IMG/VR virus record: IMGVR_UViG_3300025696_000002
Location: 1-40,595 of that record
Direction: 5' to 3' (one strand)
DNA: 40,595 nucleotides
Source of the DNA: a virus
In this document: positions 1 through 40,595 of the stretch, piece by piece
Layout: each line of letters begins with the position of its first letter
Position numbering within the stretch: the stretch's first letter is position 1
Made by a program: the position numbers and the translations under genes
Notes under the pieces: generated by a model
The model's database searches: none
What the model was told of the DNA's origin: nothing
The model's input: only the letters and a program-made list of their open reading frames with translations

Positions 1-127
1 ACGAGGTGACGGCGTTTGAAACGCTGGCTGAAAAGTACATGCAGCTAAAGCGCCAGGTTAGAACAGGGGAGTTGATTTGAAGATTAAGCCTTTTGTAGCG
101 CCTGAAATTCAGGAATGCAGAATTGGA
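1..127. repeat. Terminal direct duplication, identical to 40469-40595 (circular-closure overlap of the assembly or terminal redundancy)
   Basis: Read directly: acgaggtgacggcgtttgaa...caggaatgcagaattgga is present at both window ends. It carries the 3' end of CDS 40231-40548 and the 5' end of CDS 77-424, so genes run continuously across the junction. Confidence 0.95.
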
Positions 128-424
128 AATCACAGATGGAGCGTGGCCCGCCTGTTCCAGCTATCAAAAGATTTGTCAGTGATGGAAATTCCGATAGCCC
201 ATCTGAACATCCACTTTATGTACGGCAAAATGAGCCTGCGCGAGTTGGCTGGTCACGCCGTTGCTATTCGCGATGCTGATCTTCGTTGCCCGATTATATT
301 GGATGAGGATGGCGAGCTGATGGACGGCCGGCATCGGTTGATGAAATCAATTATCGAAGGCGCGACGACTATTAAGGCTGTGCGCTTTGACGAAAATCCG
401 GAGCCGTGCAAGTGGGAAAAATGA
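77..424 (+). CDS. ParB-like nuclease domain protein
   Basis: 115 aa ORF. TTG start overlaps the stop of the preceding gene (TTGA). Motif ILDEDGELMDGRHRL resembles the ParB/sulfiredoxin-fold DGxHR signature. Confidence 0.65.
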   Translation: MKIKPFVAPEIQECRIGNHRWSVARLFQLSKDLSVMEIPIAHLNIHFMYGKMSLRELAGHAVAIRDADLRCPIILDEDGELMDGRHRLMKSIIEGATTIKAVRFDENPEPCKWEK

Positions 425-669
425 CTACCGCCGGCCAGTGGCTAATACCCGAAACCGCCCCGCGCGACGGCAACCCGTTTATTGCCAACGTTACCGGCTG
501 GCCGTGGGCGGCAATCGCTGCTTGGAACGAGCACGACGATTGCTTTGTTTATACAACGCTGCAAGCGTACGAAATGGCCGAAGAAACAGTTGATCGCTAC
601 TTTGAAAACGAGCAAGCCCGGCCCAGCGAACTGCGCGGCTGGCAGCCACTACCGGAGATTTTACGCTGA
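421..669 (+). CDS. DUF551-like small phage protein
   Basis: ATG at 421 overlaps the upstream stop (ATGA). N-terminal WLIPETAPRDG matches the W-x-P-I-x-T-A-P-x-D-G signature also seen in the 33614-33982 and 35509-35748 products. Confidence 0.6.
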   Translation: MTTAGQWLIPETAPRDGNPFIANVTGWPWAAIAAWNEHDDCFVYTTLQAYEMAEETVDRYFENEQARPSELRGWQPLPEILR

Positions 670-956
670 TGGCCGAACCGAGCTACTACGTGCAGCAAAT
701 TACCAGCGCGATGAAACGCGAGCTGTCGGTGGGCGTTATGTCAACCACTGGCAGTTGCAACCGCTGCAAAACGGAGGCGGCGCGCGGTTGTGGCGTGTGC
801 CTTACGTGCCGGACAAAAGAGCTGGCAGCGCTAACGGGTAACGACTTACTAGCGCGGCATTACCGCGCGGCGCTGGAAGCGGCTCGCGAGCTTGAGTGTC
901 GGCTTATCCAGCAAGCCGAAATTAACGACAGGGGCCAGATTGATGCTGCTAGCTGA
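669..956 (+). CDS. Hypothetical protein with Cys-rich (zinc-ribbon-like) segment
   Basis: 95 aa ORF with TGATG overlap to the upstream gene. Contains CNRCKTEAARGCGVCLTC. Confidence 0.5.
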   Translation: MAEPSYYVQQITSAMKRELSVGVMSTTGSCNRCKTEAARGCGVCLTCRTKELAALTGNDLLARHYRAALEAARELECRLIQQAEINDRGQIDAAS

Positions 957-1044
957 TATTGCCGTGCTGGCTCTGCGCGTGGCGATCACGGCGGCGCTGG
1001 TTGCGTATTTGTGGCGCGGGTATCGCAGCGGCGGTGCCGCTTGA
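943..1044 (+). CDS. Possible 33-aa hydrophobic peptide
   Basis: Hand-translated: MLLADIAVLALRVAITAALVAYLWRGYRSGGAA. Its stop overlaps a TTG of the next ORF. Below the ORF-track size cutoff. Confidence 0.25.
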   Translation: MLLADIAVLALRVAITAALVAYLWRGYRSGGAA

Positions 1045-1214
1045 GCCTGGATTATTTCAAATGGTTTGAAGCTGAGCTGGCCGCGCTGTGCGAACGCGCG
1101 CAACTAGCCGCAACAGGCCACCCAACACCGAGACTGCCGGAATTCGCCGGCAGCATTCGCCGTTTCCGCAAACCGGAATCGCGCCCTAAACAGGCGCAGT
1201 CTGGTTACGGCTAG
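1041..1214 (+). CDS. Hypothetical protein (start uncertain)
   Basis: Frame open from 1011. A TTG at 1041 overlaps the preceding small-ORF stop (TTGA). No recognisable motif. Confidence 0.3.
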   Translation: MSLDYFKWFEAELAALCERAQLAATGHPTPRLPEFAGSIRRFRKPESRPKQAQSGYG

Positions 1215-1294
1215 CTTGGCGCGGTGCTCTCAGGTGTGGGTATCGCGCTAAATAAAACAGTCATCCGGTCGGCTGTAATTGGCCGGAATTTAGT

Positions 1295-1374
1295 GCTCTT
1301 TAGCGAGCAGGTAGGCCGTACCGGTAACGGCGGCGGGTTCCCTGACCTTCTCTCTGCCTGCTCGACTAAAGCGC
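1295..1374 (+). other. Long imperfect hairpin inside a ~330-nt noncoding leader
   Basis: GCTCTTTAGCGAGCAGG (1295-1311) pairs with CCTGCTCGACTAAAGCGC (1357-1374) with one mismatch and one bulge. Further small stems follow: GCTGGC/GCCAGC and GCCCGCA/TGCGGGC. Confidence 0.5.
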
Positions 1375-1550
1375 ATTACCGCCGCTGGCTGCGGCAATAA
1401 GCCAGCAATGCGTCGCCGTCTGCGTACGACTGGCAGCAACGGGACGCAACTAATTCAACGGCTAAGCCCGCAGGCCATAAATTGCGGGCAAAGAAAAACC
1501 GCGCTGCTGTCGAGGCGGGTACGCGGTTTACCAAACTGGTGAGACGAACT

Positions 1551-1772
1551 ATGAGCGAAAACTCAGAAAATTACAAGGCCGGCGAAACATCTGGCCCAAG
1601 CGGCAGCCTGGAGCTGGATTTATTCGGGATGGTGACTATCACCGGCACCGTCGACGAGCACGGCAATATCCACATGCCCGCAGACGAGTTGCTAATGCAC
1701 TGCCTGCGGATTTTTAAGGGCCGGTTAATGACGCTGGCGGGGATCTATTACAAGCAGTCGGAGGGCGAATGA
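1551..1772 (+). CDS. Hypothetical protein
   Basis: The ORF is open from 1482. The ATG at 1551 (MSENSENYK...) is the first ATG. No motif recognised. Confidence 0.45.
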   Translation: MSENSENYKAGETSGPSGSLELDLFGMVTITGTVDEHGNIHMPADELLMHCLRIFKGRLMTLAGIYYKQSEGE

Positions 1773-1774
1773 GC

Positions 1775-1873
1775 ATGATTAAGCAGTTAATTCTGAGCGC
1801 CTATCTGCGCGGCTTTATACCGGCTGTTTTCGTTTCATTCTGCTTTGCGGTTCTGCCGCTACGGGAGGCGTAA
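1775..1873 (+). CDS. Possible 32-aa hydrophobic peptide
   Basis: Hand-translated MIKQLILSAYLRGFIPAVFVSFCFAVLPLREA. Its TAA overlaps the ATG of the next gene (TAATG). Confidence 0.25.
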   Translation: MIKQLILSAYLRGFIPAVFVSFCFAVLPLREA

Positions 1874-2634
1874 TGCCCCGTAAAAGAGAGATTAAATTCG
1901 GATTTTTTCAGAACGATTTATTGACTGACATATCCCCTTGCGGTCGATTAATGTTTCAGGGCATGTGGTGTTTGGCTGACTTTGAGGGCCGTTTATTAGA
2001 CCGACCAAAGCGAATAAAAGCCGCTGTTATGCCCTACGATAATTTTGATTTTGAGGCCGATTTAGAGGCGCTTGAAAAGAACGGTTTTATCCATCGCTAC
2101 ACGGTTAACGAAATCAGTGTTATCGAAATTTGTAACTTTACGAAACATCAAAACTTGCATCCGAACGAAAAACTTAACGGCTCTGCTATTCCTCGCGAAG
2201 ATGGAAGTGTTCCGCAAGTTACTGATAACGATAAAAAAGTTATTGCGGATAAAAAAATCGCGAGTAAATCGCGAGTAAATCGCGATAAAAAACGTACTAA
2301 TCGGGCTTTTACTTCTTTTACTTCTTTTACTTCTTCTACTTCTTTTAATTACCCCAAACCCCTGGCGGGTTTGGTGGGCAAACTCGATGAGTTTGCAGAG
2401 CACCGGCGTGATCTAAAAAAACCAATGACCGAGCGGGCAGCAATTTTGCTAATCGGCCAGCTGGAAAAGTTTGCCGGTGAGGGCCACGACGTGTCGGCAA
2501 TGATCGACACGGCCATCGTCAACGGCTGGCAGTCCGTTCATCCGCCAAAGAATTTTGGCAGCACGCCAGCGCCGGCAGAGCAGGGCACCGCCGGCCAAGA
2601 TGCCTGGATGCGTGAAATGGGGATCGAGCTATGA
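1873..2634 (+). CDS. Putative replication initiator / replisome organiser (lambda O-like position)
   Basis: 253 aa, lying immediately upstream of and translationally coupled to the primase-helicase. A low-complexity linker (FTSFTSFTSSTSF) is encoded by an internal iteron/AT-rich tract. Confidence 0.5.
   Translation: MPRKREIKFGFFQNDLLTDISPCGRLMFQGMWCLADFEGRLLDRPKRIKAAVMPYDNFDFEADLEALEKNGFIHRYTVNEISVIEICNFTKHQNLHPNEKLNGSAIPREDGSVPQVTDNDKKVIADKKIASKSRVNRDKKRTNRAFTSFTSFTSSTSFNYPKPLAGLVGKLDEFAEHRRDLKKPMTERAAILLIGQLEKFAGEGHDVSAMIDTAIVNGWQSVHPPKNFGSTPAPAEQGTAGQDAWMREMGIEL
2229..2342. repeat. Iteron-like direct repeats plus AT-rich tract (candidate ori) inside the initiator gene
   Basis: 3 x GATAAAAAA; 3 x 11-bp AAATCGCGAGT/AAATCGCGATA (2255-2287); 4 x 9-bp TTTTACTTC/TTCTACTTC (2307-2342). 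Locally much more AT-rich than the flanks. Confidence 0.5.
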
Positions 2635-4463
2635 AAACGATTTCCGATATTTCGCAGATGCTGGCCGACCGCGCCGAGGCGACGGCGGTTGAGCTTCTGC
2701 CGAACGGTAAGCGGGCCGGCAAGGAATGGCAGGCCGGCAGCGTTGACGGCGAAAAGGGTGCCAGCCTGAACGTTTGCATTGCTGGCTCGAAAGCGGGCGT
2801 GTGGTCAGACTTTGCGACTGGCGAGCGCGGCGACCTGATGGATTTGTGGGCGACGGTGCGCGGCGTAGACCTGGGCGAAGCGCTGCAACAGGCCGCGAGC
2901 TGGCTAGGGGTTGAGATGCCGAAGTTTGCTGGCAAGCGCGAGCAGAGCTACCAGCCGCCGGCGGTGCCCAAAACCGCGAGAGTTGCTGGCGCTAGCGACC
3001 CGGCGATGAACTATCTTCGCGACGTTCGGCAAATTCCGCAGGCCGTAATTGAAGCCTACCGGGTGCAGGGCACCGCAACGTCTGTGCTGTTTCCGTTCTA
3101 CCACGGCGACGATCTAAAAATGATGAAGGCGCTGCGGATAGCGCGCATCGACGGCAAGAAGGATATTCGCCCCACTTCCGGCGAGCAAATGCACTGCCTT
3201 TTTGGCTGGCAAGCGGTTAGCGATAAAGCCAGAAATATCACGATTTGCGAGGGCGAAATTGACGCGATGAGCCTCTACGCTTGCGGCTTTACGGCGCTGT
3301 CGGTTCCGTTCGGTGGCGGCGCTGGCGGTAAGCATCAGTGGATTGAAAACGAGTACGACCGGCTGGCTCGTTTTGACACGATTTACCTTTGTTTTGACAA
3401 CGACGAGGCCGGCAAAACAGCGACCGCCGATATTGCCCGCAGACTCGGTGAGCACCGCTGCCGCGTGGTTAAGCTGCCGCTAAAAGATGCCAACGAGTGT
3501 TTGTTGGCCGGCCAGTTAGACCTGGTTAATCGCGGTTTTTTGGCGGCTCAGAGCTTTGACCCGCAGGAGCTACGCAGCGCGTCGGAGTTTTACGACGAGA
3601 TACACGCCAAGTTTTACCCGGATGGCGGCGTAGAGGCCGGCTTGCATCTGCCGTTTTTCGACAGCGAAAAGTTAGTTTTGCGCCCTGCTGAATTATCAAT
3701 CTGGAACGGGGTAAACGGCCACGGCAAGTCGCAGGCGGTCGGACAGATTGTGCTGGAGGCGATGCGTGACGGCAGCCGTTGCTGCGTAGCCTCGATGGAG
3801 TTTAAGCCGGAGATGCTGCTGTGGCGCATTACGACACAAGCCGCTGGCCTAAACGGCGACTCGCCGCCGTCACCTGAATTTATTCGGGAAATTACGAACT
3901 GGTATCAGCGCCGGCTGTGGATGTTCGGGGTTGTCGGTTCGGCAAACTGGGAGCGTTTGCTAGAAGTTTTTCAGTACGCCGCCAAGCGTTACGGCTGCAA
4001 TATCTTTGTTGTCGATTCGCTGCTGAAGTGCGGCATTGACGAGGACGACTACAACGGCCAGAAACGATTCGTAGAGGCTTTGTGCGATTTCAAAAACACG
4101 CACGACTGCCACGTTTTGCTAGTGACTCACAGCCGCAAGGGCGACGGCGAATTCAAGCCGACTGGCAAGATGGATGTTCGCGGCTCCGGCACGATTACCG
4201 ACCTTTGCGACACGTTAGTAAACGTTTGGCGGAACAAGCCGAAAGAGAAAGAAATTAATTCCAGCGACGCCGAAATTCGCGACAAGGCAGCGGACAAGCC
4301 TGATTCGATTTGGTCGGTGCAAAAACAACGGAACGGCAACGGCTGGGAAGGCGGGCGCGGCCTTTGGTTTCATCCGCCGTCGATGCAGTTCCTTCGCGGC
4401 CAGCACGCGAAACCTTTTCAATACGTCGGCTATAGCAGCCAACAATCGGAGCAATACGCATGA
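2631..4463 (+). CDS. Bifunctional DNA primase-helicase (Toprim + DnaB/T7 gp4-like ATPase)
   Basis: 610 aa. Toprim-like ICEGEIDAMSLY ... CFDNDEAG. Walker A NGVNGHGKSQ. Walker B-like NIFVVDSL. C-terminal helicase-like segment LLVTHSRK. Confidence 0.85.
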   Translation: MKTISDISQMLADRAEATAVELLPNGKRAGKEWQAGSVDGEKGASLNVCIAGSKAGVWSDFATGERGDLMDLWATVRGVDLGEALQQAASWLGVEMPKFAGKREQSYQPPAVPKTARVAGASDPAMNYLRDVRQIPQAVIEAYRVQGTATSVLFPFYHGDDLKMMKALRIARIDGKKDIRPTSGEQMHCLFGWQAVSDKARNITICEGEIDAMSLYACGFTALSVPFGGGAGGKHQWIENEYDRLARFDTIYLCFDNDEAGKTATADIARRLGEHRCRVVKLPLKDANECLLAGQLDLVNRGFLAAQSFDPQELRSASEFYDEIHAKFYPDGGVEAGLHLPFFDSEKLVLRPAELSIWNGVNGHGKSQAVGQIVLEAMRDGSRCCVASMEFKPEMLLWRITTQAAGLNGDSPPSPEFIREITNWYQRRLWMFGVVGSANWERLLEVFQYAAKRYGCNIFVVDSLLKCGIDEDDYNGQKRFVEALCDFKNTHDCHVLLVTHSRKGDGEFKPTGKMDVRGSGTITDLCDTLVNVWRNKPKEKEINSSDAEIRDKAADKPDSIWSVQKQRNGNGWEGGRGLWFHPPSMQFLRGQHAKPFQYVGYSSQQSEQYA

Positions 4464-4894
4464 GCACAATAAGTTTTACCGGCCGAATCGGGCGCGACTG
4501 CGAAGTTCGCCAGGCAGGCCAGAGCACCGTCGCAGAGATAGCCGTTGCAGTCGATACCGGCTATGGCGAGCGCAAAAAAACGACATGGTATCGCTGCCAG
4601 CTTTGGGGGAAGCGTGCCGAGGGCGGCTTGATTGACTACCTAAAAAAAGGAACGCAGGTATTTGTAACCGGCGAGCACAGCGGCAGCGAGTACAAGAAAA
4701 AAGACGGTAGCAGCGGCTACAGCAACGACGTGAATATTGACCGGATTTCGCTCATTGGCGGCAGAGACGGCGGCAGTCAGTCGGGCAGCAGCCAGCCACA
4801 AGGGCGCAATAGCTACGGAAATGCGGCCGCTAGTCAGCCACGCATCGCGCCAGACCAGCCGCCGGCTGATTTTGACGACGACATCCCGTTCTAG
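4460..4894 (+). CDS. ssb: Single-stranded DNA-binding protein
   Basis: 144 aa with an OB-fold-like N-terminus, a Gly/Ser/Gln-rich linker and the canonical acidic tail DFDDDIPF. Confidence 0.9.
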   Translation: MSTISFTGRIGRDCEVRQAGQSTVAEIAVAVDTGYGERKKTTWYRCQLWGKRAEGGLIDYLKKGTQVFVTGEHSGSEYKKKDGSSGYSNDVNIDRISLIGGRDGGSQSGSSQPQGRNSYGNAAASQPRIAPDQPPADFDDDIPF

Positions 4895-6089: not shown

Positions 6090-6116
6090 TGCTGTGCGGT
6101 TGGCGGGGCGGTTGTG

Positions 6117-6608
6117 ATGGGGCCGCCGTTTCTGTGCATAGACCCTGGCCCCAAGTCCAGCGGGGTTTGCGAATACTTGCCGGAAATAAACGGAGTACGA
6201 AATGCCGACAGCAAAGCCGACAATAACTCACTGATGCTTGATCGAGAAGGCTTGCCCGTACTAATCGAGATGATAGCGAGCTACGGTATGCCAGTGGGTG
6301 CGTCAGTGTTTGAAACATGTGGCTATATCGGCAGGCTAGTACAGCACTACGGCCCTGATAACTGCCTGTTGATCTATCGCAAGGACGTGAAGCTGACGCT
6401 CTGCAACAGTCTTCGAGCAAAGGATGCAAACGTGCGCCAGGCGTTGCTCGACAGGTTCCCCGCCTACGGCGGCGGAAAGACCCCGCAGGTAGGTACAAAA
6501 AACGATCAAGGCCCGTTGTATGGCGTTACGTCGCACGCATGGTCTGCACTGGCGTTAGGCGTTGCTTACGCGGAAAACCCGTCAATCGGCCGGCGGCCAA
6601 ATTTTTAG
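6117..6608 (+). CDS. RuvC-like Holliday junction resolvase (putative)
   Basis: N-terminal FLCIDPGPKSSG resembles the RuvC IDPG..sG catalytic-Asp motif. Size (~163 aa) and position after the replication genes fit a phage resolvase. Confidence 0.5.
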   Translation: MGPPFLCIDPGPKSSGVCEYLPEINGVRNADSKADNNSLMLDREGLPVLIEMIASYGMPVGASVFETCGYIGRLVQHYGPDNCLLIYRKDVKLTLCNSLRAKDANVRQALLDRFPAYGGGKTPQVGTKNDQGPLYGVTSHAWSALALGVAYAENPSIGRRPNF

Positions 6609-8176: not shown

Positions 8177-8365
8177 ATGAGCGAAATTGCAGAAGCTGTC
8201 GCGGCTATCAACCATTTGGCTGATGCGATAAGCCGACAGTCGGAGGCGATTAACAGCCTCGCCCTATCAGTAGCTGCGATGCTGGATGATGGCAGCGACG
8301 TTTCGCAAGCTGATTGTTGCTACATGGACGGCACTCCCGTTGCCCACGGCGCCAAGCACACATAA
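8177..8365 (+). CDS. Hypothetical protein
   Basis: 62 aa ORF starting 14 nt after the terminator. It overlaps the upstream extension of the HNH ORF by 80 nt, so one of the two starts is wrong. Confidence 0.35.
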   Translation: MSEIAEAVAAINHLADAISRQSEAINSLALSVAAMLDDGSDVSQADCCYMDGTPVAHGAKHT

Positions 8366-32035: not shown

Positions 32036-32057
32036 CTTCTAATCCTCTAGTGTTGCA

Positions 32058-32142
32058 ACCTAACATTTGCATGCAGTTGACCCTGTGAGCCTACGGCATG
32101 TAGTGAATTTATCGGTGGGGCAACTGATGCAAGCAGTTATGC
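32058..32142 (+). repeat. attC-like hairpin element E3 (85 bp)
   Basis: ACCTAAC-AT-TTGCAT[G]CAGTTG[A]CCC...GGG-CAACTG-ATGCAA-GCA-GTTATGC. Confidence 0.6.
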
Positions 32143-32298: not shown

Positions 32299-32495
32299 GT
32301 GTCTATTTCTCCGAGCAATAGCGTGTTGGTGGCGCTGCAAAGATCAAAAGCGATGCCGTCCGCGTTCTCAATAGGCACCTGCTTTGCCCATCCGCCTTGG
32401 TCATAGCTGCCGCCTCCAGTCTCATGGCTAACAACCTCAACCGTATAACTTTCATCAAATTGGTCTAGCCACTTTTTTAGCTGCTTAACATTCAT
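32295..32495 (-). CDS. Hypothetical protein
   Basis: 66 aa, 4-nt overlaps on both sides. Confidence 0.5.
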   Translation of the reverse strand: MNVKQLKKWLDQFDESYTVEVVSHETGGGSYDQGGWAKQVPIENADGIAFDLCSATNTLLLGEIDT

Positions 32496-32719
32496 TTGAT
32501 TAGCTCCAGCTGAGTGATTGCCGAGTAATAACCAAAGCGCCAGTTTTTCGGCTTGCTTCGCATTTCGTCGCGGAGCTTGGCTATTGCTTCGTTAATTACA
32601 TCTTCGCGGGTTTGCGCCACCTCAGCCCTGAGAGCTACGCACGCTTGCCGCCAGTTGTTGCGGGGCTTATTTCCCGCGTGGCGGCTGTTAAAGCCCGCCA
32701 TTGCCTCGGCTGCTGTCAT
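32492..32719 (-). CDS. Hypothetical protein
   Basis: 75 aa, coupled to its neighbours. Confidence 0.5.
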   Translation of the reverse strand: MTAAEAMAGFNSRHAGNKPRNNWRQACVALRAEVAQTREDVINEAIAKLRDEMRSKPKNWRFGYYSAITQLELIK

Positions 32720-32931
32720 TACTTGCAGAGTCCGGTTATGTCGTACTCTTCTCCGATAACGTAGCAGTCTGCATTTATTCCGTCTTTCAGCTCGAAAAGA
32801 CTAACGCTAATAACTTGGCCGTTTCTTGCAATTCTTGCGGGGGCTTCAAACATTGCGTTCTCTTCGATGCTGATGTAACCGATAAACTTTGCCATTTTCG
32901 TCTGCCCTTGTTTGTGTGGTTGCTGTTTCAA
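32719..32931 (-). CDS. Hypothetical protein
   Basis: 70 aa, preceded by an AT-rich spacer with a promoter-like pair. Confidence 0.5.
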   Translation of the reverse strand: MKQQPHKQGQTKMAKFIGYISIEENAMFEAPARIARNGQVISVSLFELKDGINADCYVIGEEYDITGLCK

Positions 32932-32938
32932 TAAAGCC

Positions 32939-32967
32939 AGTATACTTAAACTGTTTTAGTAAAACAA
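32939..32967 (-). promoter_or_regulatory. Candidate internal sigma70 promoter (leftward)
   Basis: On the minus strand: TTGTTT (32967-32962), 17-nt spacer, TATACT (32944-32939), within a visibly AT-rich 70-nt spacer. Confidence 0.4.
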
Positions 32968-33007
32968 GACCCAAAGGCAAATAAACTTAAATAACTTTAG
33001 CTTTGTG

Positions 33008-33092
33008 GCATAACAACAGCGTGGAGCGTGACAAGCCTTGCCACTACGCCTACGGCTCCGTTATCGGCTTGCACCTCACGCAACAGTTATAT
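33008..33092 (+). repeat. attC-like hairpin element E8 (85 bp)
   Basis: GCATAAC-AACA-GCGTG[G]AG[C]GTG[A]CAAGCC...GGCTTG-CAC-CT-CACGC-AACA-GTTATAT. The stem sequence is unrelated to E1/E3 but the pairing and bulge positions are kept. Confidence 0.6.
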
Positions 33093-33095
33093 CCG

Positions 33096-33311
33096 CTAGT
33101 CATCATTAATCAGCAAAGCCAAAGCCAAAAGCGCCCGCTCCTTGTTCAAATGCTGCGAGCGCTGCGATACGCTTATCGCTACGTTGCCGGTTGGAATGTG
33201 CCGCAGCTTAACTCCGTTGGGAATTTGGCCGGTTTGCATTCCGCCTTTTGGCTTCGGCGGCCATAGCTCGCCTTCTATATCGTCGGGCTTTAGCATTTCA
33301 ATCTCCCGCAA
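33096..33311 (-). CDS. Stand-alone class-I release factor domain-3-like protein with GGQ replaced by GGM
   Basis: 71 aa. [40 protein letters not shown] aligns without gaps to the RF2-type [41 protein letters not shown] (from memory). Confidence 0.65.
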   Translation of the reverse strand: [71 protein letters not shown]

Positions 33312-33322
33312 GCCGTGGCCTG

Positions 33323-33529
33323 CTATAAATATTCAACGTTCCAAGTGGGGTGCAAGTTTAGGCGAGTCTTGCAGCCCGGCACCCTGTCATCTGGCAGCAC
33401 TCGAAGCCGAGCACCGCGCGCTGATGTAATGCGGCCAAACCAAACCCCGCCAAAACCATCTACAAACTTTATTCTGCCGCCTCGCTTGGCTGGTACTTTG
33501 TAGTAATCCCTTATGTATTTCATGCTCAT
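33323..33529 (-). CDS. Hypothetical protein
   Basis: 68 aa, basic. Confidence 0.5.
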   Translation of the reverse strand: MSMKYIRDYYKVPAKRGGRIKFVDGFGGVWFGRITSARGARLRVLPDDRVPGCKTRLNLHPTWNVEYL

Positions 33530-33547
33530 AATTTATACCTGCCGCAA

Positions 33548-33626
33548 ATCTAACAATCAGTTGCATCGGACATTGGCTGCGCCAACGCTTCGCGGCCTCC
33601 GGCTGCCGTTGAACTAGCAGTTAGGT
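33548..33626 (+). repeat. attC-like hairpin element E4 (79 bp)
   Basis: ATCTAAC-AATC-AGTT[G]CATCGG[A]CA...TG-CCGTTG-AACT-AGCA-GTTAGGT (one mismatch in the 6-bp block). The upstream gene reads through the right-hand heptamer and stops 4 nt inside the element. Confidence 0.55.
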
Positions 33627-33982
33627 GCCTCCGGAACTTCATACCAGTGGGTGTAAGGTGGCTGCTCTTTTGCCCCCGTAAATGGAATTTCGACAGGCGC
33701 GGCGATTAAATAGTGTTCGTAGTTTTGAGCATGAACTTGCCATTGGTCATCACTCCAAATGTCATCTTCATAAAGTTCGTTTCCGTCACCATCTCGCCAA
33801 AACATACGAAGCCATCGCCCGTCTTTTGGTGCCGTCGCTATCGGCTGCCAGCCGTTCTTTTCAGCTTCTCGTAGCAATCGCCGTACAATTTGAACCGCAT
33901 TATCTGTATCAACTTCTGTTCGGAAGTCTAAATGAACTAGCCGCTCAACTATTCCCCGCGCTTTTTCGTCTCGTTCGCTCAT
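33614..33982 (-). CDS. DUF551-like protein
   Basis: 122 aa containing GWQPIATAPKDGRWL. Confidence 0.6.
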   Translation of the reverse strand: MSERDEKARGIVERLVHLDFRTEVDTDNAVQIVRRLLREAEKNGWQPIATAPKDGRWLRMFWRDGDGNELYEDDIWSDDQWQVHAQNYEHYLIAAPVEIPFTGAKEQPPYTHWYEVPEAPNC

Positions 33983-34005
33983 AACCTTAATCCTCTAGTG
34001 TCGCA

Positions 34006-34089
34006 ACCTAACAACGGGTTGCATTAGACACCGCTACGCGGCGGCGCTTCGCTTGGCCCTGCGGGCTGCTACTGAACCCACAGTTATGC
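34006..34089 (+). repeat. attC-like hairpin element E5 (84 bp)
   Basis: ACCTAAC-AAC-GGGTT[G]CATTAG[A]CA...TG-CTACTG-AACCC-ACA-GTTATGC (one mismatch). Confidence 0.55.
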
Positions 34090-34098
34090 CCCTATCCC

Positions 34099-34491
34099 TT
34101 AACCGGCAGTCATTGAGGCAAGCAGCTTAGGGGTGATGTCATGCTCAAGCCCAAACGCCATTACTTCACCCGGCATTGCAGGCTCGATAACGCTGAACAT
34201 GCCCTTGTAATCGCCAAGCTCATTGATGATCACTCCTAGCCACTTCTGACCGCCATCAAAGCCAGACTCGCCCCATTCAAGCCCCTCGGTCTTCTCGCCT
34301 TGGCAAAATTCGTCTGGGTTATTCTCATTGGTCGCAATGGTTTTGCCTTCGCAAACAGCTATGTGGTGCGACAGCTCGTCAACCTCATAAGGCTCGCCGG
34401 TGTCTTCATCATATTTCGTGCGCTTCTTTCGGATCGCTTGGATCTCAACAGGGAAGCCAAAAACAATGTCGGTGCTGTAACTAATGCTCAT
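34099..34491 (-). CDS. Hypothetical protein
   Basis: 130 aa, acidic, no motif. Confidence 0.55.
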   Translation of the reverse strand: MSISYSTDIVFGFPVEIQAIRKKRTKYDEDTGEPYEVDELSHHIAVCEGKTIATNENNPDEFCQGEKTEGLEWGESGFDGGQKWLGVIINELGDYKGMFSVIEPAMPGEVMAFGLEHDITPKLLASMTAG

Positions 34492-34554
34492 ATCAAATCC
34501 GTCTTTATCAGTTAAGCGCCAGCGGTGCTAGCGCGGTAAGCCCGTATGAGAGGG

Positions 34555-34613
34555 GTATAACAAAACGCTGGAGAGCGACCCGCTAGCGCGGGCGCCTCAG
34601 CTCTGTGTTATGC
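34555..34613 (+). repeat. attC-like hairpin element E9 (59 bp, minimal form)
   Basis: GTATAAC-AAAAC-GCTG[G]AG[A]GCG[A]CCCGC-tagc-GCGGG-CGC-CT-CAGC-TCTGT-GTTATGC. Confidence 0.55.
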
Positions 34614-34919
34614 GTCAGCGTCAGCCATTGGCGGGCTTTTGTAAATCTTGCCCGTTCTAGGGTTACATGGTTTGCACTGGCCAAGGTCGATGTACAAAGT
34701 CCACCGGCCAAAAACAACAAACTTAGTTCTGATTCTTGACCATTCGCCTTTGCGGAATTTCCACATAATCCCGAAACCAAAATGTCGTGGGAATCCTATG
34801 TGCCACCATCCGTCCATGATTCGCCACCTAAAAAACGGGTTAAACGTTTTTACAAGGCCGTTAGAATAACGCGTGGTCGATGGCGTTCTTTCAAAATACG
34901 TCTTTTTCATATTATTCAA
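34608..34919 (-). CDS. Hypothetical protein
   Basis: 103 aa, Trp/Phe/Arg-rich. Confidence 0.5.
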   Translation of the reverse strand: MNNMKKTYFERTPSTTRYSNGLVKTFNPFFRWRIMDGWWHIGFPRHFGFGIMWKFRKGEWSRIRTKFVVFGRWTLYIDLGQCKPCNPRTGKIYKSPPMADADA

Positions 34920-34935
34920 TCCTCAAATAGCTTAC

Positions 34936-35019
34936 GCATAACAAAAGAATGCAGTTGACACCCTTTCCACTACCGCTTAGCGTCCGTTTCAAGTGCGCGA
35001 ACTGATTCAACAGTTAGTT
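34936..35019 (+). repeat. attC-like hairpin element E6 (84 bp, weaker inner stem)
   Basis: GCATAAC-AAAA-GAAT[G]CAGTT...AACTG-ATTC-AACA-GTTAGTT. Confidence 0.45.
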
Positions 35020-35026
35020 GCCTCGT

Positions 35027-35164
35027 TTAACTGGCGCGCATGCCATTATAAAAAACACCAACAGCAGCGCCACCGGTAATGCCGAGCATGAAAGCCATAA
35101 ACGCAACGCCAAGCACTGGATAAATTGCGTTCGCTATTGCCTTTAGCTTTTCCATTCCATCCAT
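35027..35164 (-). CDS. Possible 45-aa membrane peptide
   Basis: Hand-translated MDGMEKLKAIANAIYPVLGVAFMAFMLGITGGAAVGVFYNGMRAS. Below the ORF-track cutoff. Confidence 0.3.
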   Translation of the reverse strand: MDGMEKLKAIANAIYPVLGVAFMAFMLGITGGAAVGVFYNGMRAS

Positions 35165-35217
35165 CCCGCAACCGTTCCGGCTGCTCATTTATGTGTTCCG
35201 CTACTGCTTAGCAGAAG

Positions 35218-35412
35218 CTAGTTTGCTTGCTCATTGCACGGCGCTGAATCGCTTACATAGTTCTCATAGCGAATTAGCGCAGCTTTTAGAAAGCCACGAA
35301 CTTCGTCAACGCTCGGGCCGCCTAATTTCACGAACTCAGGATTTGCCAGCGCAAAAAAATAGTCGCTAGCGTGCTCTGCAACTTTCTCCAATAACTGTTT
35401 CTCGTTACTCAT
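35218..35412 (-). CDS. Hypothetical protein
   Basis: 64 aa. Confidence 0.5.
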   Translation of the reverse strand: MSNEKQLLEKVAEHASDYFFALANPEFVKLGGPSVDEVRGFLKAALIRYENYVSDSAPCNEQAN

Positions 35413-35430
35413 AAATCCTCGCTATCGCAA

Positions 35431-35514
35431 ATATAACAACGGCTTGCAGTTGACCCCGTGAGCCAGTGCGCTTTATTAATAATTTTGGTGGGGCAACTGA
35501 ACCCACAGTTAAGT
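35431..35514 (+). repeat. attC-like hairpin element E7 (84 bp)
   Basis: ATATAAC-AAC-GGCTT[G]CAGTTG[A]CCCC...GGGG-CAACTG-AACCC-ACA-GTTAAGT (one mismatch). Confidence 0.55.
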
Positions 35515-35748
35515 TGCAAACTCAGCCGGCTTTAATGGTTGCGGCTGCCAGTGGGTCGCATCTATAAAATTGCCGTGTGAGGCCCATCCTTCTTCGTCGT
35601 AATCCACGCGCTCCCAGGTCTCGAAAACTCCGTGCTCATTAAATCGGCAGCGGCTTTCCCAACAGCCCGTACCTTCGCCGCTTGTAATCCACGCCTGGAA
35701 CTCGCTCCCGTCATTTGGCGCTGTCTCTATCGGTTGCCAGTCACTCAC
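35509..35748 (-). CDS. DUF551-like protein
   Basis: 79 aa, GTG start. Contains DWQPIETAPNDGSEF. Confidence 0.6.
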   Translation of the reverse strand: MSDWQPIETAPNDGSEFQAWITSGEGTGCWESRCRFNEHGVFETWERVDYDEEGWASHGNFIDATHWQPQPLKPAEFAT

Positions 35749-35834
35749 GCCAAAACCTCCCTAACCAGTAGCCCGATAGAAAACGCCAACAGCGCAAAGG
35801 TGATTAGCGGCAGTATTTTGTTGCGGTTAGGCAT
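35745..35834 (-). CDS. Possible 29-aa membrane peptide
   Basis: Hand-translated MPNRNKILPLITFALLAFSIGLLVREVLA. Overlaps both neighbours (ATGCCTAA, GTGA). Confidence 0.3.
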   Translation of the reverse strand: MPNRNKILPLITFALLAFSIGLLVREVLA

Positions 35835-36153
35835 CGTATTGCTCCATCAGCTGGATAAATTTACGCTCTGCGGCGATTAGCCAGTTTCGCAGCCGGGTTT
35901 CCTTCGTTCCCTCAATGGTTCGGCCGTCCTGAAAATCGTGGCATGTGCTACAAAGAGGCACCGACCATCGGTTGTCGCCCTTTAAGCCCGTGCCGTTATC
36001 AAACGTCGGCAGGTGGGCGGCTACTGTCGTTCCGTCGTTTACTGTGCAGAGGATGCAAGGCTCGTCGCGGGCCGCTTCCATCGGCTTGCGGGATTTGTTG
36101 CGCGTGGGTTTGGGTAGCAGCATGTCTGTTACTGAGGCGGCGCGGCTGTTCAT
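35827..36153 (-). CDS. Ref/DUF968-like HNH-type nuclease (putative recombination enhancement function)
   Basis: 108 aa. CILC...TVAAHLP...GTGLKGDNRWSVPLCSTCH resembles the P1 Ref / DUF968 metal-binding pattern. Confidence 0.5.
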   Translation of the reverse strand: MNSRAASVTDMLLPKPTRNKSRKPMEAARDEPCILCTVNDGTTVAAHLPTFDNGTGLKGDNRWSVPLCSTCHDFQDGRTIEGTKETRLRNWLIAAERKFIQLMEQYDA

Positions 36154-37079
36154 AATGATTCATGGCCATAATAATTATCTTGGCTGTTTAAGCTTAGGTT
36201 TGTCTTTTTCGCTAAGGGCGGGTTTACTGTGAATGCTGTACCGCCAATATCTACCACTTGAGTTCCACTCAAAAAAGCAGTTATATCTATATCAGTGCCG
36301 TTTCTCAGTCTGCGCTTATGAGACTCTACTAAGTGCAGTATTGGTCGCTTCCTGCCTGTGGCAGTCATAGGCAGGCTTCTTGCGTAAAGGAGTGACTTTA
36401 TTTCCTCTTTCATGCAGCCTAGATTGGCCCTTGCCTCTGCCTCTTGAGCCGTTATAGACCAGCAAAATCGCCTATCAGCGTGTTCTTGCAGAATTACAGA
36501 GGCTATGCCAGCGGTGTTTTCTCTGTGCGCTCTAAGCTCAGTAAGTATTGGATGACCATTCAGCTTATTGTTTGCTGCCTCATTCTTGCTAATGAAGCAG
36601 GTAGCAACCTCTCCGGACTTGCTAACAGTTACACATGAAACTCGATTAGCAAGATGATGACTGGTTGCGTAAATCAATTTTAATTTATAAAGATTGCCGC
36701 CCGTTTGCCTTATAAAACCTTTCGGTGTTTTGTTTAACGCCTCCATCGTGGCAATGCATGCGTATACATTTCCGCATTCGGGCAACTCAAAATCACCGGC
36801 GTTGAACACCATGCCTGAAACAGCAAAGCTGGGCAGGTTATCGTTCTTGGTGTCGAAGTAACCAAATTCTCCATCTATGTCCTCAGGCTCTATAACCTCC
36901 CTTGACCTGCTTGGAATATAAGGACCAACTGCCCTAGCTCTTAGCATGTCGGACAAAGATACTCTTTCTGATTTTATCCACTTTTTCTGGCTTTCTAACT
37001 TTGTTTCGTAGCAGGCGATAAGTATTGAGCTAACTGAATCCTCAAAATCTTCACCTTTCCATGCGTCAATAACTTCCAC
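36150..37079 (-). CDS. Hypothetical protein, low-GC insert in the recombination module
   Basis: 309 aa, visibly more AT-rich than both neighbours. No catalytic motif recognised. Confidence 0.6.
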   Translation of the reverse strand: MEVIDAWKGEDFEDSVSSILIACYETKLESQKKWIKSERVSLSDMLRARAVGPYIPSRSREVIEPEDIDGEFGYFDTKNDNLPSFAVSGMVFNAGDFELPECGNVYACIATMEALNKTPKGFIRQTGGNLYKLKLIYATSHHLANRVSCVTVSKSGEVATCFISKNEAANNKLNGHPILTELRAHRENTAGIASVILQEHADRRFCWSITAQEAEARANLGCMKEEIKSLLYARSLPMTATGRKRPILHLVESHKRRLRNGTDIDITAFLSGTQVVDIGGTAFTVNPPLAKKTNLSLNSQDNYYGHESL

Positions 37080-37681
37080 TACGCCACCTCCAAATACTGC
37101 TCAACAGCCGCTTGCATATGCTCTGGTGATTCAAATTCCGTTTTCAACATTTCGCGCCAGGCAACCCGGCTAACCTTGTTGTAGTAGTCGCGCCATTCAT
37201 CGCCCGACATAGCGTTAAAATTCGTAGGCAGTGATTTACGGGTGTAACCTGTAGGCGTGAGCACTAGCTCAAAATGGCATTGCTGCTTTAGCCATTCGTG
37301 AATAATTTCAGGCGTCGGGGCTACCGGTTCCGGCGCTGCGTCGGCTCGCAGCGCGGCGATACGTGATAGCTCCGTTTTAACCACCTCGCGGGCTTTCGGT
37401 ATTGGCAGCTTGAAGGTGTTAGCCATAGCCAGCATCAGGTTATTGGCCAGGCTCAATTCAGCAGCCGTCAACAGCTCATTCGTCGGCTTCCAGTAGTGCT
37501 GTAATAGCTCGATAAACGGCCCCCAGTAAAGGTTGTGCCATGCAACTGATCGAGACTTCACTTTCACCGCTTCAAGCCGCACGCCTTGGCCGTTGTTCCA
37601 GACTTGGGAAAGCTCCCGGTCATAATCGGTAACGGGGCGTAGAGCGCCGTTGTTGTATGTGCAAGTAATTTGCTTAGCCAT
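37079..37681 (-). CDS. Hypothetical protein (possibly DUF1367-like), Erf-adjacent
   Basis: 200 aa, with start/stop overlaps on both sides. Confidence 0.5.
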   Translation of the reverse strand: MAKQITCTYNNGALRPVTDYDRELSQVWNNGQGVRLEAVKVKSRSVAWHNLYWGPFIELLQHYWKPTNELLTAAELSLANNLMLAMANTFKLPIPKAREVVKTELSRIAALRADAAPEPVAPTPEIIHEWLKQQCHFELVLTPTGYTRKSLPTNFNAMSGDEWRDYYNKVSRVAWREMLKTEFESPEHMQAAVEQYLEVA

Positions 37682-38574
37682 TACGCCACCTCGCCAAGAT
37701 CAACTTCACCGGGTAGCGATTCGGCAGCGAGGGCACGGCGGGCCGCAGAAAATCCGTCGCCTTGCTTAATTTCTGTACGCTCGGCAGTGGTGAAAATTCC
37801 GCCCTTGGTTGGGGCCAGCCATAGCCAGCCTTTTTCCTCGTCGGTTAGCTCGTTGTAGGCTTCGGCTGCCAGTGAAAAGTCGCCCGTTTCAGCACCGGTC
37901 AGCAGTCCGCGCTTAATCGCGTCAACGCTGGCCCAAAGCTCGCGAACCGCTGATATGTGTTCGATAACTTTTTTATTCGCTGCTGTTAGCTCCTCGATAA
38001 GATCAGGCCCGCCGTGCTGGCCGTCGTCGTCCTGATCGCCGGTCATAATTCCTAGCGCGTTGCAGAACGCCAGGCGCTTGGCGTAAGTAGTGGCGCTGGC
38101 CGCTTTCTGCATGTCGTTCATAAATGCTTTTGGGTCAACCGGTGCGGTAAAACTTGAGCGCTCCGAGTGGCCTAAGACATGAGTAATTACGACAGTGGCC
38201 GTTGCCATGCCAGCCTCAAAGTTCGCGTCTACGGTGTAGCTCAGGCCGCAGTCGGTCAGCAGGCCGCGTACTTGCAAAACGATTGCATCCATCGGCGCGT
38301 ATGAATAACGCGGCACTGTGTAATTTCCGGCTTTATCTTTGCCGTAAACCACCTTGTCTTTCTTGATTACTGGGCATTTACTCTGAAAATCAGAAATTGA
38401 CCGCTGATAGGCTTCGCGCGCCTTGTTGGCGTTGTGGCGCTCCTGCAAGTCCATTAGCTTGCCCATTACTTCAACGTCGGCTTTTGACTCGATGGCTTGC
38501 CGTAGAAGCTGGCTAGCGTCCATTGTGGCTAGCTCTGACACCGGCTCTGCTTTTGCTACTGCTGAGTTACTCAT
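37681..38574 (-). CDS. erf: Erf-family single-strand annealing protein
   Basis: GGAGG RBS then ATG at 38574. YSYAPMDAIVLQVRGLL and QKAASATTYAKRLAFCNALGIMTGDQDDDG parallel the P22 Erf segments YKYRSCEDILEGVKPLL and GATSSYARKYCLNGLFGIDDAKDAD (from memory). Confidence 0.75.
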   Translation of the reverse strand: MSNSAVAKAEPVSELATMDASQLLRQAIESKADVEVMGKLMDLQERHNANKAREAYQRSISDFQSKCPVIKKDKVVYGKDKAGNYTVPRYSYAPMDAIVLQVRGLLTDCGLSYTVDANFEAGMATATVVITHVLGHSERSSFTAPVDPKAFMNDMQKAASATTYAKRLAFCNALGIMTGDQDDDGQHGGPDLIEELTAANKKVIEHISAVRELWASVDAIKRGLLTGAETGDFSLAAEAYNELTDEEKGWLWLAPTKGGIFTTAERTEIKQGDGFSAARRALAAESLPGEVDLGEVA

Positions 38575-38575
38575 A

Positions 38576-38698
38576 TCAACCTCCAAAAATCTGAAAAATC
38601 AAAAGCCCGGCTACAAGCGCGAAGGCCACGGCTGTTAGCGCCGTTACGGGCAGCTCAGGCTTATGCGCGCTGCTGATTAGTGGGCATTTATGCTGCAT
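38576..38698 (-). CDS. Possible 40-aa membrane peptide
   Basis: Hand-translated MQHKCPLISSAHKPELPVTALTAVAFALVAGLLIFQIFGG. Confidence 0.3.
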   Translation of the reverse strand: MQHKCPLISSAHKPELPVTALTAVAFALVAGLLIFQIFGG

Positions 38699-39422: not shown

Positions 39423-39451
39423 AGTCTACATATTGGAGACTTGCGGTGCAA
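39423..39451 (-). promoter_or_regulatory. Candidate leftward early promoter (PL-like)
   Basis: Minus strand: TTGCAC (39451-39446), 17-nt spacer, TAGACT (39428-39423). Confidence 0.5.
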
Positions 39452-39508
39452 TCCCATTTTGTAGACTTTATAAAGAATCCAATTATGTTAAGCGTAAAAG
39501 CTTAATTT

Positions 39509-39832
39509 TCAGTCTTTGGCGGGGCTTTGCTCGTGCATCGCGCTAACTATCTTGTATAGATAGTCGCGCTCGGATTTGTCTGCCGACCTAAAAAGTTCGA
39601 TGAGCTTCTTTTCTCGTTCGTCAGAAATAAAAAGCGCATCGTCACCTAATAACTCACTCACACTTACACCACATAGCTTAGCTATATCTTTAATTTGCTG
39701 AATACTTGGCTCTCTGGTGCCGGTTAGGTAGTGACCAACCCCGGATTTTGAATAGCCAAGCTCTTTAGCAATATCAACGTAAGTGAATCCTTTTTCTTTT
39801 AGCAAGCCCCGCGCTCTGTCGTACCAGCGCAT
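39509..39832 (-). CDS. XRE/Cro-C1-type HTH repressor (CI-like, no S24 peptidase domain)
   Basis: 107 aa from the ATG at 39832. FTYVDIAKELGYSKSGVGHYLTGTREPSIQQIKDIAKLCGVSVSELL is a classic HTH_XRE. The longer 201-aa ORF upstream has no coding-like features. Confidence 0.75.
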   Translation of the reverse strand: MRWYDRARGLLKEKGFTYVDIAKELGYSKSGVGHYLTGTREPSIQQIKDIAKLCGVSVSELLGDDALFISDEREKKLIELFRSADKSERDYLYKIVSAMHEQSPAKD

Positions 39833-39911
39833 AGAAGCAATACTACTCTTACCGCAGACGGTTGCTGTCCCGATATTGTAGCCATTACTGCGCGCTGGCG
39901 ACACGGCCGGC

Positions 39912-39940
39912 TTGCTTGTGATTTCCCGGTATCGTAGACT
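39912..39940 (+). promoter_or_regulatory. Candidate rightward early promoter (PR-like)
   Basis: TTGCTT (39912-39917), 17-nt spacer, TAGACT (39935-39940). The Cro-like ATG lies 7 nt after the -10 with no SD, which implies a leaderless or near-leaderless mRNA. Confidence 0.5.
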
Positions 39941-39947
39941 TGACTGC

Positions 39948-40163
39948 ATGAGCAATAAACCCCTTGACCTTATCCTTAAAACCACGCGGCAAATAGATTT
40001 TGCTGCAAAGGTTGGCATATCCAATAAAACGGTTAGCGCCGTCGTGAATGGTCGCCGGCATTTCAGTCGCGAATCGGCTATTAAAATTGCCGCCGCATAC
40101 CCGCATGTAAGCATTGCTGAGGCGCTTATGTATCAGCCAGCAACTGCCGAAGCCGCCGCATGA
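39948..40163 (+). CDS. Cro-like HTH regulator
   Basis: 71 aa, divergent from the repressor. HTH: RQIDFAAKVGISNKTVSAVVNGRR. Confidence 0.65.
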   Translation: MSNKPLDLILKTTRQIDFAAKVGISNKTVSAVVNGRRHFSRESAIKIAAAYPHVSIAEALMYQPATAEAAA

Positions 40164-40190
40164 ATCTCATCCCTGCTCATAACGAGCCTT

Positions 40191-40212
40191 GCCGATTAAT
40201 CGCGGCTTTTTT
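40191..40212 (+). terminator. Weak terminator-like hairpin after the Cro-like gene (tR1-like position)
   Basis: GCCG-attaatcg-CGGC followed by TTTTTT. The stem is only 4 bp. Confidence 0.3.
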
Positions 40213-40230
40213 ATTGCCTGGTGCTTTGCG

Positions 40231-40548
40231 ATGAGTGAAGCATCTTCCGACGGCGTTGCAATCGCCAGCAATCCACTTGCAAGGGCTCGCAAGATGCAGT
40301 CTGTGCTCTTGCAGCGGCTAGCTGGCAATCAGATAGCCATTGCCACGGCCAAGGGCGTTAGCGAATCCATAGTGAGCCGCAGCAAAGAGCACATCGGCGA
40401 AATTATGGAGCTGATCGCGTTTAGCGGCCTAAAGCTGGTATCGGTCGACATGGAGTGTTTTGACCGCGACGAGGTGACGGCGTTTGAAACGCTGGCTGAA
40501 AAGTACATGCAGCTAAAGCGCCAGGTTAGAACAGGGGAGTTGATTTGA
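40231..40548 (+). CDS. CII-like HTH regulator (putative)
   Basis: 105 aa from the ATG at 40231. IAIATAKGVSESIVSRSK resembles the CII-type HTH (..S.vSRwk). The stop overlaps the TTG start of the ParB-like gene across the circular junction. Confidence 0.45.
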   Translation: MSEASSDGVAIASNPLARARKMQSVLLQRLAGNQIAIATAKGVSESIVSRSKEHIGEIMELIAFSGLKLVSVDMECFDRDEVTAFETLAEKYMQLKRQVRTGELI

Positions 40549-40595
40549 AGATTAAGCCTTTTGTAGCGCCTGAAATTCAGGAATGCAGAATTGGA
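40469..40595. repeat. Second copy of the terminal duplication (= 1-127)
   Basis: Identical by direct comparison. Confidence 0.95.

Follow-up and report, generated by a model that had tools for sequence, protein, structure and literature searches.

An Array of attC-Type Sites in a Phage Genome

The window analyzed in this study, meaning the whole stretch of DNA under examination, is the entire IMG/VR virus record IMGVR_UViG_3300025696_000002 (40,595 bases). Between its recombination module and the lysis-gene end, at the distal end of the leftward operon, the phage carries a 5.2-kb array of about ten gene cassettes bounded by attC-like elements. Nine such elements of 58–85 nt lie at 31189-35515, within 4.3 kb. 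Every element possesses a TAAC...GTTA closing box that fits the RYYYAAC/GTTRRRY pattern, an unpaired spacer, a stem with bulged bases, and a variable loop. A covariance model (R1) was built from the window's own sites, and its scores are given with the sites below. L053, L030, and L036 are contigs described in the next section.

31189-31273 (+, top strand as for all nine): attC el1, of the DHH cassette; R1, 85 bits; replaced along with DHH in L053
31599-31682 (+): attC el2; R1, 84 bits
32059-32143 (+): attC el3, 94% identical to el1 (repeat family D1); R1, 85 bits
33009-33093 (+): attC el4; R1, 63 bits
33549-33627 (+): attC el5; R1, 64 bits
34007-34090 (+): attC el6; R1, 76 bits
34555-34612 (+): attC el7, a short form of 58 nt; TAAC/GTTA boxes and bulged G as in the other sites, in a fold of -16.4 kcal/mol; no R1 hit at E ≤ 1 under default filters
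34937-35020 (+): attC el8; R1, 69 bits; copy in L030/L036
35432-35515 (+): attC el9; R1, 80 bits, and fold; 100% identical copy in phage contig L030

When the eight long sites were aligned, 85% of the cells were paired, compared to 71% in shuffles, and compensatory changes were present in eight of the 15 pairs of the L stem. The TAAC/GTTA boxes and one bulged G were invariant in this alignment. R1 also located the aadA1 attC site of plasmid R100 at its exact coordinates and on the aadA1 sense strand (18.3 bits; E = 0.002). In a sample of 151 gammaproteobacterial genomes, R1 detected arrays in two (G056 and G103), both of which have a gene for a true integron integrase (TIGR02249 scores of 453 and 463 bits). 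The arrays of G056 were found on small contigs, one of them adjoining intI, with R1 scores of 39–51 bits and the bulged G on the top strand; one G056 site and el8 have a loop motif in common. Judged by sequence and predicted fold, the elements of the window are attC sites. Their type is the classical proteobacterial one and is in use in a genuine bacterial integron.

Beyond the array, no further R1 site was found in this phage. No intI was detected in the window or in L030/L036, and the phage has no recognizable attI. An array of this kind, with at least two clustered sites of attC architecture and neither the intI nor the attI of a complete integron, is a phage CALIN (cluster of attC sites lacking an integron integrase). 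This is a known kind of element, and the present one is notable for its size, its place in the genome, the inverted polarity of its genes, and its natural cassette turnover.

Cassette Turnover at a Conserved Hairpin

One end of the array is marked by a hairpin, both in the window and in a second phage. In the sequences given here, the slash stands for the crossover point, which in the window falls between G30341 and T30342.

30276-30344 (+): conserved hairpin (arms 30276-30305 and 30307-30336; inverted repeat I1; fold of -23 kcal/mol), then GTCATTG/TTA
L030 2692-2760 and L036 1172-1240: hairpin copies in the second phage, about 65 nt plus CATTG/TTA

Contig L053 (2,987 bp) was 100% identical to window positions 31254-32544 and 98% identical to 29639-30344, and is taken on this ground to derive from the same phage as the window. 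Between the identical stretches, two other attC sites and three other small genes replace el1 and DHH. The first breakpoint was located exactly at CATTG/TTA next to the hairpin. The second was located in the last 13 nt of el1, ahead of its G/TT, where both attC sites share the L box.

Contigs L030 and L036, which overlap at 99.9% identity, represent a different phage, which has a portal of the lambda type and a ClpP-capsid fusion, and no Phage_integrase match was found in them. Their array lies upstream of the portal gene; in L036, a small open reading frame (ORF) and then the portal gene come directly after the hairpin. The hairpin is the same at 80% identity and is followed by the same CATTG/TTA. 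The similarity stops at TTA, and the first cassette differs. The cassette bounded by el8 and el9 was 90–100% identical to that of the window, while the other cassettes differ. A crossover at the G/TT of the R' box, which is the mark of a cassette that moves as a unit, was thus found in the comparison of the window with L053 and again with L030. The cassettes are mobile: they have been exchanged exactly at G/TT between near-identical phage copies and are shared with an unrelated phage.

Since the hairpin occurs at another genome position in an unrelated phage, it travels with the array and is not a terminator belonging to the window phage itself. The conserved left side, the crossover at G30341/T30342, and the variable first cassette together show that the hairpin junction behaves like an entry site. 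Because two unrelated phages have kept about 65 nt on the left side of the crossover, this junction is best described, from the alignments, as a reused, attI-like entry point and not as a random GWT. In searches of IMG/VR with the hairpin-arm pattern, only chance matches without a hairpin were obtained beyond L030/L036.

Several other identities were considered for the hairpin. That the array had been inserted beside a terminator of the phage's own was dropped once hairpin and array were seen together in the unrelated phage. An intrinsic terminator was rejected, as the terminator scan made no call, no T run follows the hairpin, and genes continue past it in L036. A copy of a bacterial attI was also rejected: the hairpin region resembled the attI regions of the two integron-bearing genomes only weakly or not significantly, the score for G056 being borderline (28 vs. 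a shuffle maximum of 27) and that for G103 not significant. A 12-mer, TTATACCCCATG, is shared at similar spacing between the phage hairpin region and the G056 segment between intI and the first cassette (L081, G056:C116, 1230-1500, minus strand).

Cassette Genes and Their Inverted Polarity

The genes of the array were predicted from the ORF table, scans against Pfam and PHROG, and an orientation test.

30342-31166 (-): DHH phosphoesterase, the cassette nearest the entry site (phrog_4771, E = 1e-104; weak DHH and DHHA1 matches)
31267-35412 (-): cassette genes, 13 small ORFs of 53–130 amino acids (aa)
32137-32340 (-): helix-turn-helix (HTH) regulator in a cassette, phrog_409 family
33096-33311 (-): 71-aa cassette protein with a partial RF-1 (release-factor/ArfB-like) domain
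35509-35748 (-): 79-aa gene abutting the outermost attC site (el9); its TAA stop complements the TTA that follows the G of el9

Homologues of the DHH protein with 48% identity are encoded by temperate phages of Vibrio anguillarum. The cassette proteins include members of phrog_1273 and phrog_2730, and most are without known function; no toxin-antitoxin family was recognized among them in the Pfam and PHROG scans. The GGQ motif of the RF-1-like protein (33096-33311) reads GGMQ. Three small proteins share a W-x-P-I/E-x-T-A-P-x-D-G motif (35509-35748, minus strand; 33614-33982, minus strand; 406-669, plus strand), two of them in the array or at its edge, and none has a Pfam match at E ≤ 0.01. This motif is typical of small, DUF551-like accessory proteins of lambdoid phages.

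In canonical cassettes, the gene lies on the attC top strand and is followed by its own attC site, and this arrangement was not found here. On the plus strand of the window, as on the aadA1 sense strand, the bulged bases invariably fall in the 5' arm. The longest frame runs opposite to the model strand in six of the eight intervals, and each of the remaining two holds two small minus-strand genes. In the arrays of G056 and G103, the longest frame runs on the model strand, that is, the canonical top strand, in 10 of 14 intervals and often fills the interval. The cassette genes of L053 are likewise opposite to the attC top strand. In the window, the ribosome-binding sites of the cassette genes lie shortly past the box, and in six of ten cassette genes the TAA stop exactly complements the TTA that follows the crossover G. 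Every cassette gene is therefore inverted relative to canonical cassettes. No published description of such inverted cassette polarity was found.

The possibility that the gene strand is in fact the attC top strand was rejected on two grounds: the model strand of R1 and the exchange in L053, in which el1 was replaced along with DHH, a gene that lies downstream of el1 when read on the gene strand. The phage-family cargo and the inverted polarity suggest that the cassettes come from a pool circulating among phages rather than from bacterial integrons.

The Array Occupies the Usual Position of the Integrase Gene

In lambdoid temperate phages such as lambda, int-xis-attP is found at the end of the PL operon. 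The corresponding gene order in the window was assessed through the largest unannotated early gene, which lies on the operon side of the array.

36150-37079 (-): 309-aa protein; no Pfam, PHROG, or PDB sequence match

The family of this protein comprises at least 268 homologues, all hypothetical, including some from Azoarcus and Paraburkholderia genomes, and its basic C-terminal half is very conserved. In Pseudomonas phage phi2, the integrase gene is the final gene of the leftward operon. Among 38 viral loci collected with a homologue of the 309-aa protein, 26 records were searched for Phage_integrase, and half of them (13) contained a match. In at least nine of these, mostly of the provirus class, the integrase gene lies 0.4–2 kb downstream of the homologue, at the end of the record. 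The phages with a 309-aa homologue have little else in common with the window. The gene order of phi2 and of at least nine proviruses indicates that, for phages sharing this module, the array occupies the usual int/attP position. This agrees with the original prediction, made from the sequence without database searches, that an attC-like array fills the place of int-attP.

No attC array was found in the other phages with a 309-aa gene, which gave one weak single match only. This attC-like match (L097, 8515-8598, minus strand; 21.8 bits, E = 0.04) was located in a provirus that encodes an integrase of its own, immediately upstream of the gene for the 309-aa homologue. Four complete IMG/VR records of 34–39 kb with terminal repeats (L104, L112, L115, and L116) encode distant 309-aa homologues and have no Phage_integrase match; integrase-less phages with the 309-aa module may form a group. 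A further phage encodes a DHH homologue with 30% identity 1.5 kb downstream of a 309-aa homologue (L109, 11334-11756), so that DHH is a recurrent accessory gene at this operon end also where attC sites are lacking.

The 309-aa protein was also considered as an integrase itself. Its AlphaFold2 (AF2) model was confident (pLDDT 85), and no recombinase fold was present among the structural matches, the best of which was a weak one to AcrVA2 (Z = 4.4). The candidate was rejected because no recombinase was found among these matches.

Lysogeny Switch and Search for Integration Functions

The regulatory, recombination, and replication genes of the phage are as follows.

39509-39832 (-): CI-like repressor of about 107 aa, HTH only (HTH_3, E = 5e-11; PHROG transcriptional repressor families)
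39948-40163 (+): Cro-like HTH protein, divergent from the repressor (HTH_3, E = 1e-8)
40189-40548 (+): CII-like regulator, ORF as called, with a probable ATG at 40232 (phrog_725 "CII-like regulator", E = 8e-17)
37681-38586 (-): Erf single-strand annealing protein (Pfam ERF, E = 9e-15)
37079-37681 (-): NinB/Orf recombination mediator, DUF1367 (PF07105, E = 1e-14; phrog_319, E = 5e-18)
35827-36153 (-): small HNH/YbcO-like nuclease, the last clear backbone gene ahead of the array (phrog_131, E = 3e-18; weak YbcO and DUF968 matches)
1873-4894 (+): replication module with O-like initiator, Toprim/DnaB-type primase-helicase, and SSB (phrog_16167, E = 4e-39; Toprim_2, AAA_25, and SSB matches)
6114-6608 (+): RusA-like resolvase (PHROG match)

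Leftward of the switch are three small ORFs and the genes for Erf, NinB, the 309-aa protein, and the HNH/YbcO-like nuclease; rightward are those for the O-like initiator, primase-helicase, SSB, and RusA-like resolvase. The start codon of the repressor was read from the sequence as ATG at 39830-39832. The domain search revealed no S24 peptidase (autocleavage) domain in the repressor, which is thus not a LexA-like CI. A repressor/Cro/CII-type switch, as in lambdoid temperate phages, is therefore present, and the module and the Erf recombination genes noted in the original prediction were recovered in the HTH_3, phrog_725, and Pfam ERF matches. The same prediction had named a "ParB-nuclease" protein at 77-424, a label that rested on a DGRHR motif alone. 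This protein has no Pfam match at E ≤ 0.01, and its sole match is phrog_17560, a family with no known function, so the label was not upheld.

Six-frame hidden Markov model (HMM) searches were performed over the whole record at E ≤ 1, and the controls worked except for PF02914. No match was obtained with Phage_integrase (PF00589), Resolvase (PF00239), Recombinase (PF07508), rve (PF00665), the IS110 DEDD transposase (PF01548), the excisionase-type HTH_17 (PF12728), the ResT/TelK protelomerase (PF16684), or the partition ATPase families CbiA (PF01656) and AAA_31 (PF13614); ParM/StbA was not given a separate search. The search with PF02914 (Mu DDE) was silent on the record and equally silent on its control, and the theta-type replication module argues against a transposable, Mu-like phage. 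The window thus yielded no integrase or excisionase, and no partition ATPase of the P1/N15 type or protelomerase. As far as profile and fold searches can see, these results bear out the predicted absence of integrase, excisionase, and partition functions and of transposases of the rve and IS110 families; in particular, Phage_integrase, Resolvase, rve, and CbiA gave no recombinase or ParA-type match.

Candidate attachment sites were likewise not found. The window contains no tRNA gene, hence no attP candidate of the tRNA type, and no Rfam family matched in it. CTX-phi integrates through the host XerCD recombinases at dif, as folded single-stranded DNA. The best match of the window to a 28-bp dif site had 11 mismatches of 28, compared to 9–11 in shuffled sequence, so no dif-like site is present and the suggested analogy to CTX-phi is excluded insofar as it requires one.

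Genome Closure, Relatives, and Virion Genes

The remaining features of the record are those of an ordinary tailed phage.

1-127 and 40469-40595: terminal repeat, exact 127-bp match; IMG/VR class "direct terminal repeats"
9693-26240 (+): virion module with TerS, TerL, portal, S78 protease, HK97-type capsid, lambda-like tail tube, tape measure, and gpJ-like tip (Pfam matches)
29264-30251 (+): end of the late operon, convergent on the array, with an endolysin-like gene (phrog_1768 endolysin, E = 3e-10) and two small ORFs (ORF table)

A comparison of both ends showed that bases 1-127 are the same as bases 40469-40595. This exact repeat, together with the IMG/VR class and an estimated completeness of 100, indicates that the genome is closed with a unique length of 40,468 bp, in agreement with the earlier description of a complete, circularly closed genome. 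An ordinary operon of virion and lysis genes takes up the right two thirds of the genome, and the record as a whole represents a complete siphovirus genome, with a head of the HK97 type and a tail of the lambda type. Two HNH endonuclease genes (8286-8642 and 8692-9594, plus strand) are arranged in tandem immediately upstream of the gene for the small terminase.

No relatives at the DNA level were revealed when the entire window was compared by megablast with 50,697 phage records. Based on the large terminase subunit (TerL), the nearest cultured relatives are Pseudomonas phages TC7, phi2, and Psp6 (52–56% identity), with 55% identity to the TerL of phi2. The host, which is uncultured, is probably a marine gammaproteobacterium.

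Integrated Copies and the Route to Lysogeny

No integrated copy and no junction between phage and bacterium was found in the reachable data, in which the contigs are few (3–4). The proteins of the window are present on one to four contigs each, the longest being 40,609 bp, and their 90% clusters are singletons except that of the portal. A TerL scan of 185,579 species genomes (one per species) returned one contig of a metagenome-assembled genome at 59% identity and no prophage copy, and no TerL relative was found in G056 or G103, the two genomes with this attC type. In L053, the only variant contig that spans the array, the lysis genes, the hairpin, and the array follow one another as in the free genome.

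The original prediction had proposed that the phage lysogenizes by attC × attI recombination catalyzed by the integron integrase of its host. This mechanism was not supported, as no prophage copy emerged from the TerL scan or the contig listing, no contig bearing the proteins of the window exceeds 40,609 bp, and the arrangement in L053 is the free one. The parts of that interpretation that stood are the absence of integration and partition functions of the phage's own, the location of the array at the int position, and the authenticity of the attC-type sites. The alternative offered with it, a derivative that has lost int, fits the data at least as well as the borrowing of an integrase.

Taken together, we consider it somewhat probable that this is a switch-bearing phage that keeps a 5.2-kb CALIN at the int/attP position as a gene-exchange array serviced in trans, and that it no longer integrates by itself. 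Judging from the type of the sites, a host integron integrase would perform the cassette recombination in trans, and the array would serve to swap accessory genes expressed from the early leftward promoter. With less assurance, the int/attP end may have been lost or displaced while the orphan switch was kept, and the phage may be a lytic, pseudolysogenic, or unstable episomal derivative.

Several observations weigh against this explanation. Some mosaic breakpoints (el8 in L030 and el9 in L051) fall in the 5' arm and not at G/TT, and homologous recombination, e.g., by Erf, may therefore do part of the shuffling. As the genes are on the opposite strand, the cassettes cannot simply stem from a bacterial integron, and the action of IntI on these sites is only predicted. 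No host IntI has been linked to this phage. The absence of integrated copies also rests on only those 3–4 contigs. Finally, the intact CI-, Cro-, and CII-like genes argue that lysogeny of some kind is still used, for which a phage that merely exchanges cassettes offers no route.

Such a route would be provided by an episomal, plasmid-like prophage whose replication would depend on the O-like initiator and primase-helicase and whose maintenance would depend on copy number or on addiction genes in the cassettes. The complete switch, the phage's own replication module, the unit length of all contigs, and the four complete integrase-less records with terminal repeats that also have 309-aa homologues are consistent with an episome. 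We nevertheless regard it as unlikely, since the six-frame searches gave no CbiA, AAA_31, or protelomerase match (ParM/StbA without a separate search) and no toxin-antitoxin family was recognized among the cassettes.

Integration by a borrowed integron integrase appears more doubtful. The circular genome would behave as a giant cassette, the host IntI would join a phage attC site or the G/TT of the hairpin with the attI or an attC of a chromosomal integron, and the same SOS-induced enzyme would excise the prophage. The genuine attC-type sites and their natural recombination at G/TT are in line with this, and replicons carrying one attC site, phage attC sites included, integrate at attI1 by IntI1 in the standard assay (Qi et al., 2023; PMC9892861). 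A Vibrio anguillarum prophage flanked by two attC sites has also been described (PMC9892861). As the repressor has no autocleavage domain, the link to induction could come from an SOS-induced IntI, a step that would itself be conjectural. However, besides the missing junctions, the phage-sized contigs, the free arrangement of the array-crossing contig, and the lack of TerL relatives in the two genomes with this attC type, cassette exchange fully explains the variation of the array, and nine sites would give nine prophage permutations, which is odd for a dedicated attP.

Slightly less probable again is that the 309-aa protein or another hypothetical protein is a new site-specific recombinase acting on an ordinary attP that went unnoticed. 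Members of the 309-aa family occur widely in prophages; their basic C-terminal half is very conserved, and no match to a known family or fold was found. Many proviruses with the gene, however, carry a normal tyrosine integrase just downstream, indicating that the 309-aa gene is not their integrase; moreover, the AF2 model has no recombinase-like fold, and the six-frame HMM searches were empty. Campbell-type integration, in which RecA or Erf would use cassettes or attC sites shared with a chromosomal integron of the host, is very improbable: near-identical cassette pieces do occur in other arrays (L051, 96.6% over 88 bp; L059, 87–89% over 100–190 bp), some breakpoints lie inside attC arms, and the phage encodes Erf and NinB, but the shared stretches are short, L051 and L059 may be bacterial or viral, and no integrated copy was found.

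Relation to Known Systems and Significance

Lambdoid phages such as lambda and phi2 share with the window the divergent repressor and Cro genes, a CII-like gene, a leftward recombination operon, and a convergent late operon. The window differs from them in having no int or xis, no identified attP, and a repressor without S24. The likeness to CTX-phi is one of idea, namely that a phage encoding no recombinase relies on a tyrosine recombinase of its host, acting on folded single-stranded DNA; the window phage, in contrast, is a double-stranded DNA tailed phage with no dif-like site.

CALINs in phage genomes have been reported, and phage attC sites are substrates of bacterial IntI (Qi et al., 2023, Front Microbiol; PMC9892861). 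The same study describes array boundaries that have GTTRRRY motifs and a hairpin or terminator. The window resembles these CALINs in holding an attC-bounded cassette array in a phage without intI. It differs in having nine sites, whereas the figured examples have two or three, in the location of its array at the int position of its relatives, in natural replacement at a fixed entry site, and in genes on the opposite strand. Sedentary chromosomal integrons of Gammaproteobacteria, as in G056, have the same attC type and small genes without known function; they possess intI and attI and carry genes on the attC top strand, whereas the phage lacks both and its genes are inverted. IntI also inserts cassettes at genomic attG sites, 5'-GWT-3' (Loot et al., bioRxiv 10.1101/2022.09.11.507474). 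Entry into DNA without attI is common to both cases, and the left junction CATTG/TTA of the window fits GWT, but the window site differs from attG in the roughly 65 nt that are conserved to the left of the crossover in two unrelated phages.

Clusters of attC sites in phages are thus already known, but as sparse and mostly static observations. Here, the same phage was found with different cassettes at one fixed entry site, and an unrelated phage shares both the site and one cassette. Such turnover is direct evidence of phages trading accessory genes by integron-type recombination. Two further points are unusual. The array stands in the place of the integrase module although the lysogeny switch has been kept, and every cassette gene is inverted compared to those in bacterial cassettes with this attC type, suggesting that the pool of cassettes is specific to phages. 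If integration by a host integrase were nevertheless true, it would constitute a new route to lysogeny that links integron activity, the SOS response, and prophage induction.

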